Origin: a plasmid
Sequence record: NZ_CP022360.1
Direction: 5' to 3' (one strand)
DNA length: 10,479 nucleotides
The position numbers were made by a program, and so were the translations under genes. Below, in pieces: positions 179 to 7,535 of the stretch. Under the pieces are notes generated by a model, which saw only the letters and a list, made by a program, of their open reading frames with translations, searched no databases and was not told the origin of the DNA. The stretch's first letter is position 1, and each line of letters begins with the position of its first letter.

Positions 179-273
179 ATGCCATAAATTTGGTTTTGTT
201 ATCTAATCCCCCCGATTTGAAAATCGTCCGGATAGTTAAAAAAGCAAAACCGGTCAAAAAATTTATAAAACAA

Positions 274-288
274 TTTTGCATTGCAAAA
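274..288. repeat. Palindrome family copy 1: TTTTGCATTGCAAAA followed by TTATCT. Lies directly after the stop of CDS 289..579.
   Basis: Exact 15-bp palindrome. The 21-bp stretch ttttgcattgcaaaattatct is identical to copy 2. Confidence 0.85.
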
Positions 289-579
289 TTATCTACGCCT
301 TCTAAAAAAAGCACTTGGCAGATAAAACAATGGAAATAACACAGTATAAACAACCGCATACAATGCACTGTGCGGCTTTTTTGAAGCAAAATATTTACAA
401 TAACCCCAATAGCCGATCAGCGTAAAAGTAAACGAAACGGAAGCCGCCACAAGATATTGGCTCGATAGGGTGACATCGGACTCCTGAATCGCAAGCCAGG
501 CAAAACCCAGCATACAAGATGAGATGATCACACACGGCAACGCATGGGCCCAAAACGCATTCAACGATACTTTATCCAT
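289..579 (-). CDS. Small integral membrane protein, 96 aa, three predicted TM helices, C-terminal FFRRRR tail; holin-like architecture; function unknown
   Basis: ATG at 579 on the minus strand with GAGAGG about 8 nt upstream. The ORF-track TTG at 588 is probably not the start. Three hydrophobic stretches of 19-21 aa. Lies 24 nt downstream of CDS 604..906, so operon-like. Confidence 0.6.
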   Translation of the reverse strand: MDKVSLNAFWAHALPCVIISSCMLGFAWLAIQESDVTLSSQYLVAASVSFTFTLIGYWGYCKYFASKKPHSALYAVVYTVLFPLFYLPSAFFRRRR

Positions 580-603: not shown

Positions 604-906
604 TTATGCTTCTCTAATCATTGAAAAGCCATGCTTAATCCCACTAAGACACTCTCTTTCAATATGCTTTTCACTACCCGCTAATGAGGCAATAGCTATG
701 CCGATCTCATTAGCTAAATCACATACCTCAATATCCTTCTGTGGAAGATCGCTTAAGGCTGCCATTAGCTTAGTTATGAACATTTCAACATCAACTCGAT
801 TTGATACAGTGGCTTGTTCACGCAAGTAAGCCTCAAGAACGGCAGGATTGGCGAGCGCCGCAGCTTTAACTTCTGCAAATGGAATACCTTTAACCTTGTT
901 ATTCAC
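604..906 (-). CDS. TraJ-like ribbon-helix-helix DNA-binding protein, candidate oriT-recognising relaxosome accessory factor, about 100 aa
   Basis: GTG at 906 is preceded by AAGGTGG with 6-nt spacing; the ORF-track alternative is TTG at 960. The N-terminal segment KVKGIPFAEVKAAALANPAVLEAYL resembles RP4 TraJ KVYCLPDERRAIEEKAAAAGMSLSAYL (E-x-KAAA...L-x-AYL). The gene is transcribed away from the RP4-like nick region at 1037-1061, as traJ is in RP4. Confidence 0.55.
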   Translation of the reverse strand: MNNKVKGIPFAEVKAAALANPAVLEAYLREQATVSNRVDVEMFITKLMAALSDLPQKDIEVCDLANEIGIAIASLAGSEKHIERECLSGIKHGFSMIREA

Positions 907-916
907 TATTATCCAC

Positions 917-931
917 CTTGATTTTGTAACT
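917..931 (-). promoter_or_regulatory. Shared operator-like motif AGTTACAAAATCAAG (reads on the minus strand) between a putative extended -10 (TGTGATAAT, plus coordinates 960-968) and the RBS of CDS 604..906
   Basis: Exact 15-mer is also present at 2394-2408. Related copies at 1321-1345 and 3298-3312. Confidence 0.5.
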
Positions 932-1008
932 TTTTCAATAATTGAGGTTGCTTGATTCAATTATCACAGGGAAGGAATTGAGCGCCGGAATGGAGCGAAT
1001 ATATCCAA

Positions 1009-1062
1009 GTGAATAGGGCAGCCTGATTTATCAAGGTAGGCCTACTTCACACATCCTGCCCA
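1009..1062 (+). other. Origin of transfer, IncP/RP4 (MOBP)-type. Imperfect inverted repeat 1009-1027 / 1034-1052, then nick region ACTTCACACATCCTG|CCC. Predicted nick between 1058 and 1059.
   Basis: GGCCTACTTCACACATCCTGCCC at 1039-1061 matches RP4 oriT GGCCTACTTCACCTATCCTGCCC at 21 of 23 positions. The left arm AAGTGAATAGGGCAGCCTG is an imperfect reverse complement of CAAGGTAGGCCTACTTCAC, as in RP4. A TraJ-like gene is divergent on the left, the same layout as RP4. Confidence 0.6.
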
Positions 1063-1941: not shown

Positions 1942-1956
1942 TTTTGCATTGCAAAA
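1942..1956. repeat. Palindrome family copy 2: TTTTGCATTGCAAAA + TTATCT
   Basis: Exact. About 128 nt downstream of the stop of CDS 2084..2347 on the minus strand. Confidence 0.85.
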
Positions 1957-2014
1957 TTATCTCTCGAAAATGATGCTAAAAAACGGCAAATACGGCCCAC
2001 CCTTTTGGCCCTTA

Positions 2015-2411: not shown

Positions 2412-3281
2412 TTAACGACCTAAATACACAGCAGTAACTTGTAACCGGCTATGCCCTAACTCACCGGTTATCACAGTTCTGGCGTACCTATCAGCGGCTT
2501 GTTGCGCCGCGGGTAATGAACCAACAGAAACACCCGATACCGCCGGACATTCAAAACCGGTCAGTTCCACATAACGGCGATGAGCGTAGCTGTGCCTTAA
2601 CCCATGTGCCCTATCCAATCCAATTTTTATACAGGTATTTTCATAGCGTTTCATTTGCTGCACATAACTGAGTTCTTTCGGAATAAGCGATCTGCCGGCA
2701 GCTAATGCTTTCGCCTCTGCCAATAGTTCATGCTGAGCAGCCGTTAAAATCTGGATCGCGCGATCTCGACCGCCTTTGCACCAGGACGCATCAAGTACCA
2801 AACGATCACCCCGATCCGCTTTCGCCGGCTGGATCTTCATGGCTTCTTCACGCCGTAATCCAAACGCTGCCTGCAGGCGCAAGGACATTTGCACATACTG
2901 ATCGGTTATCAAATTTAGTCGCATATCACTCAATTTTCGGCTCTTATTTTCATTGGTGACATACACTCTACGGCTAATCCCCACCGAGTCATTGGAGCGC
3001 GGTATAAGGCCATTTTTACCGATTTTTTCCGCTAACCACCGTAGATGTGCCATACGATTTTTAATCGTGCCCAGGGCAAGGCCCTCAGCTTGCCAATGAG
3101 TAACTAATGCTTCGATGTGCTTAGGTTTTAAATTATTGAGTTTAAGCCCTTTAAAACCCAAGGCAACGAGCTGTTTATCGACTAATTTTATGGTTTTGAA
3201 TCGTTCTGATTTAGTCGCAAAAGAGCTTGGGTTGTGCTGCCGCAATAGCTTGCTGGCCTCAAAAAAGAAATTGGTCGCCAT
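2412..3281 (-). CDS. Tyrosine-type site-specific recombinase/integrase, 289 aa
   Basis: Catalytic signature is present: LRREE (Arg I), HGLRHSYAHRRY (H-x-x-R box II), LGHSRLQVTAVYLG (His/Tyr nucleophile region). AAGGTG lies 4 nt before the ATG. Confidence 0.9.
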   Translation of the reverse strand: MATNFFFEASKLLRQHNPSSFATKSERFKTIKLVDKQLVALGFKGLKLNNLKPKHIEALVTHWQAEGLALGTIKNRMAHLRWLAEKIGKNGLIPRSNDSVGISRRVYVTNENKSRKLSDMRLNLITDQYVQMSLRLQAAFGLRREEAMKIQPAKADRGDRLVLDASWCKGGRDRAIQILTAAQHELLAEAKALAAGRSLIPKELSYVQQMKRYENTCIKIGLDRAHGLRHSYAHRRYVELTGFECPAVSGVSVGSLPAAQQAADRYARTVITGELGHSRLQVTAVYLGR

Positions 3282-3288
3282 AATGCAC

Positions 3289-3310
3289 CTTGAAAAAGTT
3301 ACACAATCAA
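3289..3310 (-). promoter_or_regulatory. Near-duplicate (20/22) of the 2385-2406 promoter element, immediately upstream of the integrase RBS. On the minus strand it reads TTGATTGTGTAACTTTTTCAAG, but it lacks a good -10.
   Basis: Plus strand cttgaaaaagttacacaatcaa versus cttgaataagttacaaaatcaa. Confidence 0.5.
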
Positions 3311-3333
3311 AAAATAGAATTTAATTTTGAGAT

Positions 3334-3807: not shown

Positions 3808-3999
3808 TCATTGAAAGAACTAGCCACTTTGCTCTTGGCGATAGACTTCGCTAATCACCTATCGCTCAGAGGCCCTAAAATGCGTTTTAAGCAACATTTT
3901 TAAAAAATGGCATGTTGCTATACGTTTATCTTTTTAGCGGGTTTTACAGCGTTTTAACCATGTTAGCATTGATGATAGAGGTGGATTTACCTCCTTCCT

Positions 4000-4270
4000 G
4001 CTAGACCTGAGCGAAGCGATGCTTTTAGCAAGAAGTACAGCACGTTTGTTGTTAAACGGTCGGAGACAAACGGAACTAATAGCGAGGTTTTTATGCTCGC
4101 CCCTAGCGAAGCTAGGAAATGGCGAGGCATTAATGGGTAAGGGTGGAGCCTTTAGGCGAACTAGGGCGAAGCCCTTGGTCGCGGCGCAGCCGCTGCTCTT
4201 GGGGGCGCCGGAAACGAGCGAAGCGAGGGGAAGGGCCGGCGGGGGCAAAGCCCCCTGGAGGGGTTCTTAC
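4000..4270. other. GC-rich island (non-coding by my reading) with a cluster of tri-loop mini-hairpins: CCTAGC-GAA-GCTAGG (4102-4116), GGGC-GAA-GCCC (4162-4172), GCGGC-GCA-GCCGC (4182-4194), GGGGGC-AAA-GCCCCC (4241-4255). GAGCGAAGCGA is repeated at 4010-4020 and 4216-4226.
   Basis: Contrasts with the AT-rich surroundings. Contains the GCGAAGC motif four times. The ORF-track frames here (3934..4248 minus, 4019..4285 plus) overlap each other and give low-complexity Ala/Arg/Gly-rich translations. Confidence 0.6.
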
Positions 4271-4284
4271 TTCCCGAAATTTTA

Positions 4285-4500
4285 AAGTTTTCCACATGAT
4301 TTTTACTTTGTAAGATCTTTATCTTTCTTGTTTGTATAGATCTTTCTTGTTTGTAGCACCTCTGAACACCTTGATACGCAATGATTTCAGCGGTGATAGG
4401 TGGAGAGATTTACGGTGAAAAGCACTTTATAGGAGGAGAGATTTACGGTGAAAACAGAACTGATAGGTGGAGAAATTTACGGTCATATCCACAAATTAAA
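4285..4500. other. Vegetative replication origin (oriV) of an iteron-type theta replicon: DnaA-box-like TTTTCCACA (4288-4296), AT-rich tract with GATC at 4314-4317 and 4339-4342 and a 16-bp direct repeat ATCTTTCTTGTTTGTA (4321-4336, 4340-4355), iteron array, DnaA-box-like ATATCCACA (4485-4493)
   Basis: Classic layout directly upstream of a Rep_3-type rep gene. Confidence 0.75.
4395..4486 (+). repeat. Three iterons, about 27 bp each, consensus (G/T)ATAGGWGGAGARATTTACGGTGAAAA, at 4395-4421, 4428-4454, 4462-4486, with 33-34 bp periodicity
   Basis: Direct repeats read from the sequence. Confidence 0.8.
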
Positions 4501-4569: not shown

Positions 4570-5262
4570 ATGAATTCAAAACTTGCAGTAACGAAAGCAA
4601 ATAGCCTTTTAGATGCTCGATATAGACTTAATGTACAAGCACAAAAGTTGGTTTTAGCCTGTCTGAGCAAGGTAGATCCTCGACCAGATTCAACCCCGTT
4701 AAAAGAGGTCAGGTTATCAGCCCTAGAATTCTCAGAACTTATGGGGATAGATATAAAAAACGCGCATAGAGAGCTATACAAAGCGGCAGATTTACTTTTT
4801 AAATCAACCATAACGCTCTATGAGAACGGTGAAGAAATAGAACTATATTGGATTCAAGAAAAAGCAAAAAAAATTAAAGGTGATGGTGCAGTTAGGTTGG
4901 TTTGGTCTGATCGCGTATTAAAATACATAACTCAGCTAAAGAGTAATTTTACTACCTACAAATTACGCAACATCGCAAATCTTCAGTCTGCACACTCGAT
5001 CCGTCTTTACGAACTGCTTTCACGTTTTAACGACAAAAACTTTAGAAACATTAGTCTAGATGATTTCAGATACGCATTAGGCGTCGATGATAAATATCCG
5101 CTTTTCAAAGATCTAAATAAATGGGTGATAAAGCCTTCCGTTCAAGAATTAAACCAGCGGAGCGATCTTGTTATCACATACGAAACCATCAAACATGGAA
5201 GGAACGTAACCGCACTAGCTTTCACCCTGAAACCAAACAAACAGTTGAAAATGGATCTCTAG
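4570..5262 (+). CDS. repA: Replication initiator protein, Rep_3 (RepA/RepB iteron-binding) family, 230 aa
   Basis: N-terminal NSLLDARYRLNVQAQKLVLACL is the hallmark Rep_3 motif. Iterons and DnaA boxes lie immediately upstream. No obvious SD. Confidence 0.9.
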   Translation: MNSKLAVTKANSLLDARYRLNVQAQKLVLACLSKVDPRPDSTPLKEVRLSALEFSELMGIDIKNAHRELYKAADLLFKSTITLYENGEEIELYWIQEKAKKIKGDGAVRLVWSDRVLKYITQLKSNFTTYKLRNIANLQSAHSIRLYELLSRFNDKNFRNISLDDFRYALGVDDKYPLFKDLNKWVIKPSVQELNQRSDLVITYETIKHGRNVTALAFTLKPNKQLKMDL

Positions 5263-5803: not shown

Positions 5804-5944
5804 CATTAAACGCTCCCCTAGCCTCAATAGCTACCTTCACGTTGGTGTGCTTCTTGTTGGCTATAGCGCATACTTTGGATAGTAAGGTGCTCATATCGTC
5901 CCTCTTAAAAACAATCCCCATTGATAAACGATAGAGTGTGATAA

Positions 5945-5959
5945 TTTTGCAATGCAAAA
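5945..5959. repeat. Palindrome family copy 4, inverted orientation (TTTTGCAATGCAAAA); its reverse complement carries the same TTATC flank as copies 1 and 2. Lies 36 nt beyond the toxin stop.
   Basis: Central base A versus T, plus the flank, define orientation. Confidence 0.85.
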
Positions 5960-6762: not shown

Positions 6763-7395
6763 TTACCCCCAAGCATTCATCACTAAGCTGTGCCGTTCTT
6801 CACTCAGTACCTGCAGATAAATTTCCGTGGTTTTACTGTCGCTATGGCCCATGAGTTGACTGATCACATGCAGAGGTACTGGAGGATTAGCCGTGACCAT
6901 TGCCACGCCAAAGCCATGCCGTAAACCTTTACCGGTCGCTTGCGCCCCCACAATACCCGCTCTGTGCATGACACGTTTCACTAGGCGATAAGCGGTAGGT
7001 CGACTCTGCGGCCATAACAGACTATCAGCATGAATCTCACGGCGTAGCTGTGCACGCAGGCCAAACACCAAATCCAAGTGCTCAATCAAAGACGGCGGCA
7101 CCGGCACACTGCGATACTGTGCTTGCTTCAACCGGCCATGGGGATCTGTTTTGTGTTTCTTAAGGGAACGAATAACGATTGCCGCATCCTCGACCATCAC
7201 ATGCCTGGGCGAGATCGCTAATGCCTCAGACGGGCGACAACCGGTGTAATGCAGGACATGGCAAAACATCCGCTCACTTGGCGATTCTAAGGCACTGGCA
7301 TCGAGGAAACGCCGCCGTTCTTCAGCGGTTAAATACAACCGCTCACCATCAGGCGTAAATAGGCGCATTTCAGGGGCAATATCGGGGTTTTGCAT
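6763..7395 (-). CDS. Small tyrosine recombinase, catalytic domain only, 210 aa, FimB/FimE-like in size and layout
   Basis: R (CRPSEAL), K (KKHKTD), GLRHGFG (H-x-x-R), MGHSDSKTTEIYLQV (His/Tyr). The LTAEERRRFLDA...TGCRPSE segment parallels the FimB N-terminus. No clear SD; the start could instead be the Met 9 codons downstream (MRLF...). Confidence 0.8.
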   Translation of the reverse strand: MQNPDIAPEMRLFTPDGERLYLTAEERRRFLDASALESPSERMFCHVLHYTGCRPSEALAISPRHVMVEDAAIVIRSLKKHKTDPHGRLKQAQYRSVPVPPSLIEHLDLVFGLRAQLRREIHADSLLWPQSRPTAYRLVKRVMHRAGIVGAQATGKGLRHGFGVAMVTANPPVPLHVISQLMGHSDSKTTEIYLQVLSEERHSLVMNAWG

Positions 7396-7399
7396 GGGG

Positions 7400-7430
7400 T
7401 TGAATCAGTTCTCTAGAGATTTGATTCATC
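7400..7430. repeat. Near-palindrome TGAATCA-gt-TCTCTAGAGA-tt-TGATTCA immediately upstream of the small recombinase gene
   Basis: 7-bp arms plus a 10-bp central palindrome. Confidence 0.7.
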
Positions 7431-7493
7431 TTAAGGGAAAAAACCGCCCCAGAATAGCCGCAAACGGGGCAATAGGGCGGGTTTTAGGGGCTC

Positions 7494-7524
7494 GCGTGAA
7501 TCAGTCTGGTGTAGAGTGATTCAC
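7494..7524. repeat. Inverted repeat CGTGAATCAGTC-tggtgta-GAGTGATTCACG (12-7-12 with one mismatch; 9 bp perfect), a layout like a tyrosine-recombinase core site
   Basis: Read directly. A GC-rich hairpin-prone segment (7438-7490) separates it from the 7400-7430 repeat. Confidence 0.7.
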
Positions 7525-7535
7525 GAACTCGGTAA

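Follow-up and report, generated by a model that had tools for sequence, protein, structure and literature searches.

Origins of Transfer Without a Relaxase

The leading side of the origin of transfer (oriT) of plasmids of incompatibility group P (IncP) is a TraK-binding, intrinsically curved region of about 200 bp. The nick core of the MOBP family follows the consensus (C/T)ATCCTG(C/T) (PMC3772185), and in RP4 the arm of the inverted repeat is 8 bp away from the nick site, nic (PMC7314908). Mobilization of replicons that carry nothing but the oriT, by RP4 or RK2 functions provided in trans, is common practice with laboratory vectors (PMC12696120; PMC3772185), and the presence of traJ in cis raises the efficiency of such vectors 5- to 100-fold (PMC12696120). 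Natural plasmids with an oriT and no relaxase (pOriT) are a recognized and abundant class (PMC10123127, Ares-Arroyo, Coluzzi and Rocha; review PMC12282955). These and the oriT-mimic plasmids of Staphylococcus aureus are often typed as non-transmissible by standard tools (PMC10123127; PMC12282955; PMC4652767). Here we describe an oriT in a 10,479-nucleotide stretch of plasmid DNA (sequence record NZ_CP022360.1), which in its full length we call the window. Region 964-1061 of the + strand is almost certainly a homologous IncP-type oriT and, judged by its sequence, a genuine one of the IncP-1/MOBP11 type. We consider it probable that the whole is an oriT-only mobilizable plasmid (pOriT), used for transfer with an IncP-like helper acting in trans.

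Like pOriT and the S. aureus oriT-mimic plasmids (O'Brien et al., PMC4652767), the window has an oriT alone, with the relaxase and the secretion functions to be borrowed from a conjugative element. The pOriT surveys concern Escherichia coli and S. aureus, where other oriT families predominate, whereas here the genus is Shewanella, the oriT is RP4-like and the system is known from sequence alone. There is also a likeness to the laboratory vectors with the RP4/RK2 oriT (e.g., pSB14 and the Streptomyces conjugative vectors), which are relaxase-less IncP oriT replicons served by Tra functions in trans (PMC3772185; PMC12696120). Unlike the window, these vectors are engineered, contain the exact RP4 sequence, usually in a longer fragment, and have been shown to be mobilized.

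Homology to the oriT of RP4-Like Plasmids

The + strand at 1039-1061 reads GGCCTACTTCACACATCCTGCCC and equals the RP4 23-mer at 21 of 23 positions. With two mismatches, this was the single match in the window at a threshold of three or fewer, and none of 200 dinucleotide-preserving shuffles gave any. The RP4 oriT reference agrees with IncP-1 plasmids of PLSDB in 112 of 112 bases. The nick core CATCCTG|C (CATCCTGC, 1052-1059, + strand) agrees with the MOBP consensus YATCCTGY, and its columns were invariant in our alignments A1, A3 and A6; nic is predicted between G1058 and C1059. The right (proximal) arm of the inverted repeat, GTAGGCCTACTTCAC (1032-1050, + strand), is the predicted TraJ-binding site and ends 8 nt before G1058|C1059, the same geometry as in RP4. 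The left (distal) arm, at 1007-1025 on the same strand, is one base short compared to genuine oriTs (GTGAA-TAGG). A sequence-only reading of this DNA had pointed to the nick-region match at 1039-1061 and to an imperfect inverted repeat in the position of the TraJ-binding repeat of RP4, and both were confirmed, the arms being found as quoted.

On its own evidence the inverted repeat is weak. A gapless search of 940-1120 gave nothing and the repeat appears once a bulge is allowed, the pairing consisting of 9 bp with a bulge of a single base and some extra pairs (DNA hairpin of -8.4 kcal/mol, z = -1.35). What makes it convincing is its position, homologous to the one that the repeat occupies in genuine oriTs of the IncP type (in A6, RP4 and nine others).

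Homology of the core as a whole to the oriT between traJ and traK in RP4-like plasmids is indicated by nhmmer and by alignment A6. A profile built from five oriTs matched the window at 978-1066 (E = 1.6e-23), and with BLASTN 985-1085 matched the region between traJ and traK in dozens of MOBP plasmids besides pMATVIM-7 and the Shewanella baltica plasmids pS19503 and pSBP3. Of these, pS19503 is a MOBP, MPF_T plasmid with a TraI 42% identical to that of IncP-1 alpha over the full length and a TraJ 63% identical, and by these comparisons it is a true IncP-1 relative. The blocks common to the 10 sequences of A6 are TCACAGGGAAGGA (964-976), TTGAGC (978-983), GCGAATA (995-1001), AGTGAA, the right arm and the nick, and the window shares these six elements with the aligned oriTs in the form of TCGCAGAGCAGGA (964-976), TTGAGC, GCGAATA, AGTGAA, the proximal arm and the nick ATCCTGCCC. 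The homology spans about 100 nt (964-1061), goes beyond the nick and extends to RP4, pMATVIM-7, the Shewanella IncP-like plasmids and metagenomic traJ-oriT-traK loci. It is wider than the sequence-only reading had stated.

Compared with RP4/RK2 (IncP-1 alpha, MOBP11), the window has in common ATCCTG|C, a proximal arm (GGCCTACTTCAC) identical over 12 nt, the 8-nt spacing, the four upstream blocks listed above and a small gene on the left that is transcribed away in the same orientation. It differs in having no traJ, traI or traK at either side, in being a 10.5-kb Rep_3 replicon, at 3 of the 26 arm and nick positions (GTA vs. GTG; ACA vs. CCT), in the distal arm, shorter by one base, and in a TraK-binding side without recognizable homology. 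The exact 26-mer formed by the right arm and the nick (GTAGGCCTACTTCACACATCCTGCCC) was found in 20 stretches in a metagenome scan (individual loci are designated L and a number). In at least six of them (L016, L018, L021, L022, L023, and L033) it has traJ(-traI) to its left and traK to its right, in the orientation of the window; in L027 traK is on the right, and L026, L031, and L034 represent additional copies of the Shewanella module described below.

Absence of Transfer Genes and the Proposed Route of Transfer

Scans with Pfam and NCBIfam detected no relaxase, TraJ/NikA, TraK, coupling protein or type IV secretion component among the open reading frames (ORFs) of the window. A tblastn search of the window with TraI, TraJ, TraK, TraL, and TraM of pS19503 gave nothing below E = 0.1, and therefore no decayed tra remnants are present in it. 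The oriT is flanked by a 100-codon gene (ORF100) and a RelB-like ribbon-helix-helix (RHH) gene in place of traJ and traK, and neither of them matches TraJ or TraK. Against a TraJ alignment, hhalign gave 0.3% for the ORF100 family, 0.9% for the RHH protein (1413-1670) and 0.2% for an 87-aa ORF at 2084-2347. The lack of a relaxase gene in 10.5 kb, as read previously from the sequence alone, is thus borne out by the family scans and by tblastn, and the homology and gene scans together support the earlier picture of an RP4/IncP-type oriT with its adjacent repeat on a relaxase-less replicon.

These 10.5 kb are probably the whole replicon. The relatives of the window found in PLSDB by megablast were Shewanella records only, the closest being plasmid unnamed1 of Shewanella putrefaciens 4H (NZ_CP104756.1, our L001; 41.6 kb, 97%) followed by pNUITM-VS1_2 of Shewanella xiamenensis (9.5 kb, 93%). 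The last 600 bases of the window joined to its first 600 align uninterrupted to L001 and L012 at 97.6%. Since the ends are contiguous in related replicons, the window is probably a complete circle of 10,479 bp, a Rep_3 plasmid of Shewanella. Without a relaxase on the replicon, any transfer must depend on a helper in trans.

The route that we propose would start with an IncP-like conjugative plasmid present in the same cell, whose TraJ, by homology with RP4, would bind the proximal arm at 1032-1050. The TraI relaxase of the helper would then cut the + strand at CATCCTG|C (1058/1059), 8 nt from the arm, and stay attached to the 5' end of the cut strand, which the coupling protein and type IV secretion system of the helper would export 5' to 3'. 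The leading end would be 1059 onwards, so that 604-906 would enter last, and TraI would rejoin the strand on meeting the repeat and nick again. ORF100 would not be needed in this model. The homology, the conserved architecture, the absence of tra and mob genes and the recurrence of the module in several Shewanella replicons are observations, whereas the functionality of the oriT and the choice of a helper are inferences.

The module formed by ORF100, its downstream neighbor ORF99 and the oriT was found in ten or more replicons or contigs, some of them metagenomic and the others belonging to several species of Shewanella. Over ten copies the density of variable sites was 0.35 in the ORF100 leader, 0.11 in the oriT core and 0.18 downstream, with 0 of 26 variable positions in the arm and nick. 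The most diverged copy, L007, was found via the protein and is thus unbiased with regard to the oriT; its intergenic identity is 84.6%, yet the 49 nt at 1021-1069 are unchanged. The core cis elements (YATCCTGY nick, 8-nt spacing, and proximal arm) are intact. This pattern of conservation points to constraint on the oriT.

Potential helpers exist within the genus, with ten Shewanella plasmids in PLSDB that encode TraJ. Among them pS19503, pSBP3 and S. xiamenensis FH-1 unnamed2 resemble the window with 75% identity over 79 nt, the left-hand blocks being the closest (GAGCGAATA, TTGAGC). Unlike the window they carry a full traJ-traI/traK-traL-traM core, which makes them plausible helpers. The proximal arms of the Shewanella TraJ plasmids examined are of two types, both unlike the GGCCTACTTCAC of the window. 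The first is GGACTACATCAC (pS19503 and FH-1 unnamed2), with the variant GGACTACATTAC in pSBP3, and in these three plasmids 22-23 of the 26 arm and nick positions are identical to the window. The second is ACATGTACTTTAC (pNUITM-VS2_5 and pNi1-3). The same comparison gives 23/26 for RP4 and 25/26 for pMATVIM-7. The TraJ proteins encoded beside the identical 26-mer form a distinct clade, with PIKVWVLP vs. PIKVYCLP in RP4 and the Shewanella plasmids, and are 46-56% identical to the TraJs of RP4, pMATVIM-7 and Shewanella.

Several points weigh against the proposed transfer and have to be set beside the evidence in its favor. The invariance of the arm and nick is partly due to ascertainment, since five of the ten copies (L012, L013, L026, L031, and L034) were found by that very sequence. 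In the oriT itself one base is missing from the distal arm, and the stability of the hairpin does not significantly exceed that of shuffled sequences (z = -1.35); 3' of nic there is zero recognizable homology to the TraK-binding region, where the genuine oriTs of A6 also diverge from each other. For RK2, the efficiency of the 112-bp minimal oriT has been reported to be lower than that of a 760-bp fragment by a factor of about 100,000 (PMC12696120, after Guiney and Yakobson 1983), and a specificity of TraJ and TraK for the native oriT has also been reported (PMC12696120). As to the helper, 3-5 of the 26 arm and nick positions distinguish the window from the IncP-like oriTs known in Shewanella. 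The TraJ proteins of the PIKVWVLP clade come from uncultured soil-type sources, and a homologue search with a TraJ encoded beside the identical 26-mer gave uncultured samples, a Syntrophobacteraceae metagenome-assembled genome, Caballeronia and Burkholderia as sources, with no Shewanella among them. A cognate helper was found neither by a pattern scan of the genome collection nor by the PLSDB TraJ search or the TraJ homologue search. What the pattern scan did find were two further modules, both orphan, in Shewanella decolorationis S12 and Shewanella profunda (DSM 15900).

Some of these points would also fit an inactive relic, i.e., an IncP-like oriT piece of about 100 bp left by past recombination with a conjugative plasmid and kept by descent or for the use of its promoters, with no meaningful transfer. 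The complete absence of traJ, traI, and traK, without pseudogene traces in the tblastn search, the 1-nt deletion in the distal arm with its weak hairpin, and a TraK-binding side without recognizable homology could all be read in this way. Moreover, pNUITM-VS1_2 has no counterpart of 562-1322, so this segment is dispensable for maintenance, and much of the conservation is explained by shared descent, given the close relationship among all the window-type copies (identities mostly of 94-98%). However, a relic would not be expected to have its core cis elements intact, with an arm and nick identical to those of active-looking relaxosome loci, nor to keep 49 nt around them unchanged in a copy as diverged as L007, nor to recur in so many replicons of several species. 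We regard the relic as unlikely.

The Gene in the Place of traJ

ORF100 (604-906, - strand) encodes a conserved helical protein of 100 aa and occupies the position of traJ. Its GTG start is preceded by AAGGTGG, it is conserved in the relatives, and for the S. putrefaciens relative RefSeq lists its product as a hypothetical protein. The sequence-only reading had placed this gene within non-coding DNA, and of this the gene proved real and conserved while the setting did not hold, since the gene is annotated and the oriT alone is intergenic. Its transcription away from the nick site, as described earlier for traJ of RP4, was corroborated, orientation and distance being similar to those in RP4 and pS19503; 58 nt separate the start from the left end of the oriT homology, vs. 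about 40 nt in the RP4-type locus. The resemblance went no further. A TraJ-like N-terminus had been claimed for the protein, and NCBIfam TraJ (NF010451) gave no match at E <= 0.1 (1.4e-54 for the control, TraJ of pS19503), BLASTP against TraJ gave E = 0.39 over 8 residues or no alignment, and hhalign was equally blank (0.3%). PF21983 was present in all the TraJ homologues listed, and Pfam gave no family for ORF100 except a spurious match at E = 0.04. The RHH character that had also been attributed to it is contradicted by the AlphaFold model built on the deeper alignment, which is all-helical and lacks the N-terminal strand that precedes the two helices of an RHH fold (predicted local distance difference test, pLDDT, of 80.6). 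A hint of an RHH fold, a short N-terminal hairpin, had appeared in a run with 10 close sequences (pLDDT 64.6) and was discarded, the strand being gone with the deeper alignment. According to these comparisons and to the predicted fold, ORF100 is an unrelated gene in the place of traJ and not a TraJ.

The ORF100 family is very small, with 13 proteins in a word-indexed search and 18 when 1.8 billion cluster representatives were searched exhaustively with a profile. The conserved part is the C-terminal 60 residues (ELCDLANEIG ... GIxHGF), and none of the members had a Pfam match. Two candidate identities, a HicB-like N-terminus in the relative P0017 and a HigA-type 'antidote' helix-turn-helix protein for ORF100, were dropped, no Pfam family having been found in either case. 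ORF99 (289-588, - strand), just downstream of ORF100 and probably in one operon with it, encodes a small hydrophobic protein that, judged from its sequence, is probably membrane-spanning; it is co-conserved with ORF100 in L012, L013, L026, L031, and L034. The homologues of ORF100 with 89-98% identity keep the oriT upstream (L007, L008, L009, L012, L013, L026, L031, and L034). Those with 68-70% (L006, L010, and L011) are always found after a 103-aa HTH_3 gene, in unrelated contexts. In two of these three loci the homologue is followed by conserved ORFs of 225 and 124 aa, and in L010 this block (647-955 and its neighbors) adjoins a defense locus resembling a cyclic oligonucleotide-based antiphage signaling system, CBASS (patatin, DncV-like, E1/E2, JAB).

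A more elaborate scenario would have ORF100-ORF99 displacing traJ as a new accessory module (e.g., as an adaptor recruiting the relaxosomes of several helpers, or as a device manipulating helper transfer), and the block 295-1941, between identical 21-nt repeats, acting as a portable 'mobilization cassette' shuffled among Shewanella replicons by plasmid tyrosine recombinases; this we consider improbable.

The simpler version, in which ORF100, perhaps with ORF99, is a non-homologous replacement of TraJ, an oriT accessory or adaptor that recruits the helper relaxase or modulates helper transfer, seems to us very improbable. It would account for the traJ-like position and orientation of a gene starting 58 nt from the oriT homology and for the co-inheritance of ORF100, ORF99 and the oriT in all the window-type copies, and the ORF100 family has no assigned function. 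However, there is no similarity to TraJ or RHH proteins in sequence, profile or fold, and the 68-70% homologues live elsewhere, after the HTH_3 gene (pattern and profile scans, which among these three loci covered L006 only, gave no oriT there). Another argument comes from a 23-nt palindromic operator-like motif, CTTGAwwwwGwwACwwwwTCAAG, located at 917-939, between the start of ORF100 and the oriT core. Four copies were found (917-939, 1322-1344, 2385-2407, and 3289-3311; 0 expected by chance), each just upstream of a transcription unit: ORF100, the RHH gene, the 87-aa ORF and a 289-aa integrase. The motif looks like a shared operator of a plasmid regulon and, being common to ORF100 and three backbone genes, suggests that ORF100 is under the plasmid's own regulator.

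The last alternative, that the sequence is kept mainly as a regulatory region with equivalents of the promoters traJp and traKp, for ORF100-ORF99 leftwards and the RHH gene rightwards, has the precedent of the divergent traJp and traKp within the RP4 oriT (traJ transcription starts 24 nt upstream of nic; PMC7314908) and agrees with the retained TTGAGC and GCGAATA blocks and the divergent flanking genes, but is the least probable of all, since a simple sigma-70 scan gave no promoter-like site in 940-1100 (and sigma-70 promoter and terminator scans of 560-1700 nothing informative near the oriT), ORF100 and the RHH gene have separate operator-like palindromes, neither of them within the oriT core, and a promoter role, which can coexist with transfer as in RP4, would not explain the exact nick core and spacing.

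Related Plasmids and Other Candidate Orphan oriTs

MOB-suite in PLSDB classifies the two closest relatives as non-mobilizable because no relaxase was found, and one of them, the 41.6-kb S. putrefaciens plasmid L001, carries the oriT. From 12001-12723 onwards, L001 has the same ORF99-ORF100-oriT backbone, interrupted at window position ~1283, about 220 bp downstream from the predicted nick, by a mercury-resistance transposon of the Tn3 family. The other, pNUITM-VS1_2, has the backbone of the window without the ORF100-oriT segment (562-1322). IncP-like plasmids have a broad host range. If the oriT works, plasmids of this type would be a hidden route for the spread of genes in Shewanella whenever an IncP-like plasmid is present. 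The finding is useful for annotation and for the prediction of plasmid mobility in this genus, and the locus is a clean natural example of the appearance of a pOriT plasmid, with about 100 bp of a relaxosome locus left and an unrelated gene in the place of traJ. For annotation, oriTs should be sought by homology over the whole core, beyond the nick motif, and the position of a gene is no basis for naming it.

Loci with an IncP-like oriT and traJ but without traI are present on two other Shewanella plasmids, the 7.4-kb pNUITM-VS2_5 of S. xiamenensis (L035, 3826-4444) and, as a segment, the 286-kb pNi1-3 of S. decolorationis (L037, 2826-3345). They share with the window the absence of traI, the upstream blocks and the nick, but have a third variant of the proximal arm, GGTACATGTACTTTAC, and keep a cognate traJ beside the oriT, where the window has ORF100. 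Both loci look like intermediate forms. Four metagenome contigs (L024, L025, L028, and L029) have an IncP-like left half joined to the identical 26-mer, with no TraJ or TraI beside it within the available flanks of several kb, and therefore candidate orphan IncP-type oriTs are not confined to Shewanella. In L029 the flanks contain instead toxin-antitoxin pairs, a tyrosine recombinase (integrase) and ParA.

A separate group of five metagenome contigs (L015, L017, L019, L030, and L032) has the identical 26-mer with a different left half (CGAGCC..AGGCGAGTAAGGCAGG) and zero matches to IncP TraJ, TraI or TraK at 1e-4. They may represent another relaxosome type using the same nick region.

Other Features of the Plasmid

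In the position of traK is the RHH gene (RHH85, 1413-1670, + strand), encoding a RelB/CopG-like RHH antitoxin homologue (NCBIfam RelB-like, E = 4.9e-8). It was considered as a possible TraJ or TraK and rejected, with no NCBIfam TraJ match and the low hhalign value already given. No toxin gene follows it in the window, whereas in L007 and pNUITM-VS1_2 its counterpart is followed by a ParE toxin; a ParE partner was noted in L007 and L005.

A 21-nt repeat with a palindromic core (TTTTGCATTGCAAAATTATCT) is present at 274-294 (+), 1942-1962 (+) and 5939-5959 (-), with degenerate copies at 268-288 (-) and 2017-2037. Four of these match with three mismatches or fewer, vs. 0.01 expected, and the fifth is more degenerate. 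The copies at 274-294 and 1942-1962 bracket the block ORF99-ORF100-oriT-RHH85, and the breakpoints of homology with related plasmids are near 256. The repeat was also found in L001, L005, L012, L013, L026, L031, and L034, and may serve for recombination or protein binding.

An Rfam scan of the whole window gave zero matches. The backbone consists of a Rep_3 initiator gene (4570-5262), two tyrosine recombinase genes (2412-3281 and 6763-7395, the latter a site-specific integrase) and several toxin-antitoxin pairs. Just upstream of the initiator gene there are three iteron-like direct repeats of about 33 nt (4394-4492) and two exact 16-nt repeats (4321-4355), together presumably the replication origin. 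Between the 289-aa integrase gene and the iterons, at 3934-4313, overlapping ORFs on both strands translate to peptides rich in Ala, Pro, Arg and Gly, a composition that suggests a locally GC-rich non-coding stretch. Finally, beside the integrase gene 6763-7395, about 125 nt within 7400-7530 are common (80-92% identity) to many otherwise unrelated plasmids of S. baltica and S. putrefaciens. This is the sole part of the window present in those plasmids and, with a recurrent homology breakpoint at 7523/7524, it is a candidate recombination or multimer-resolution site.

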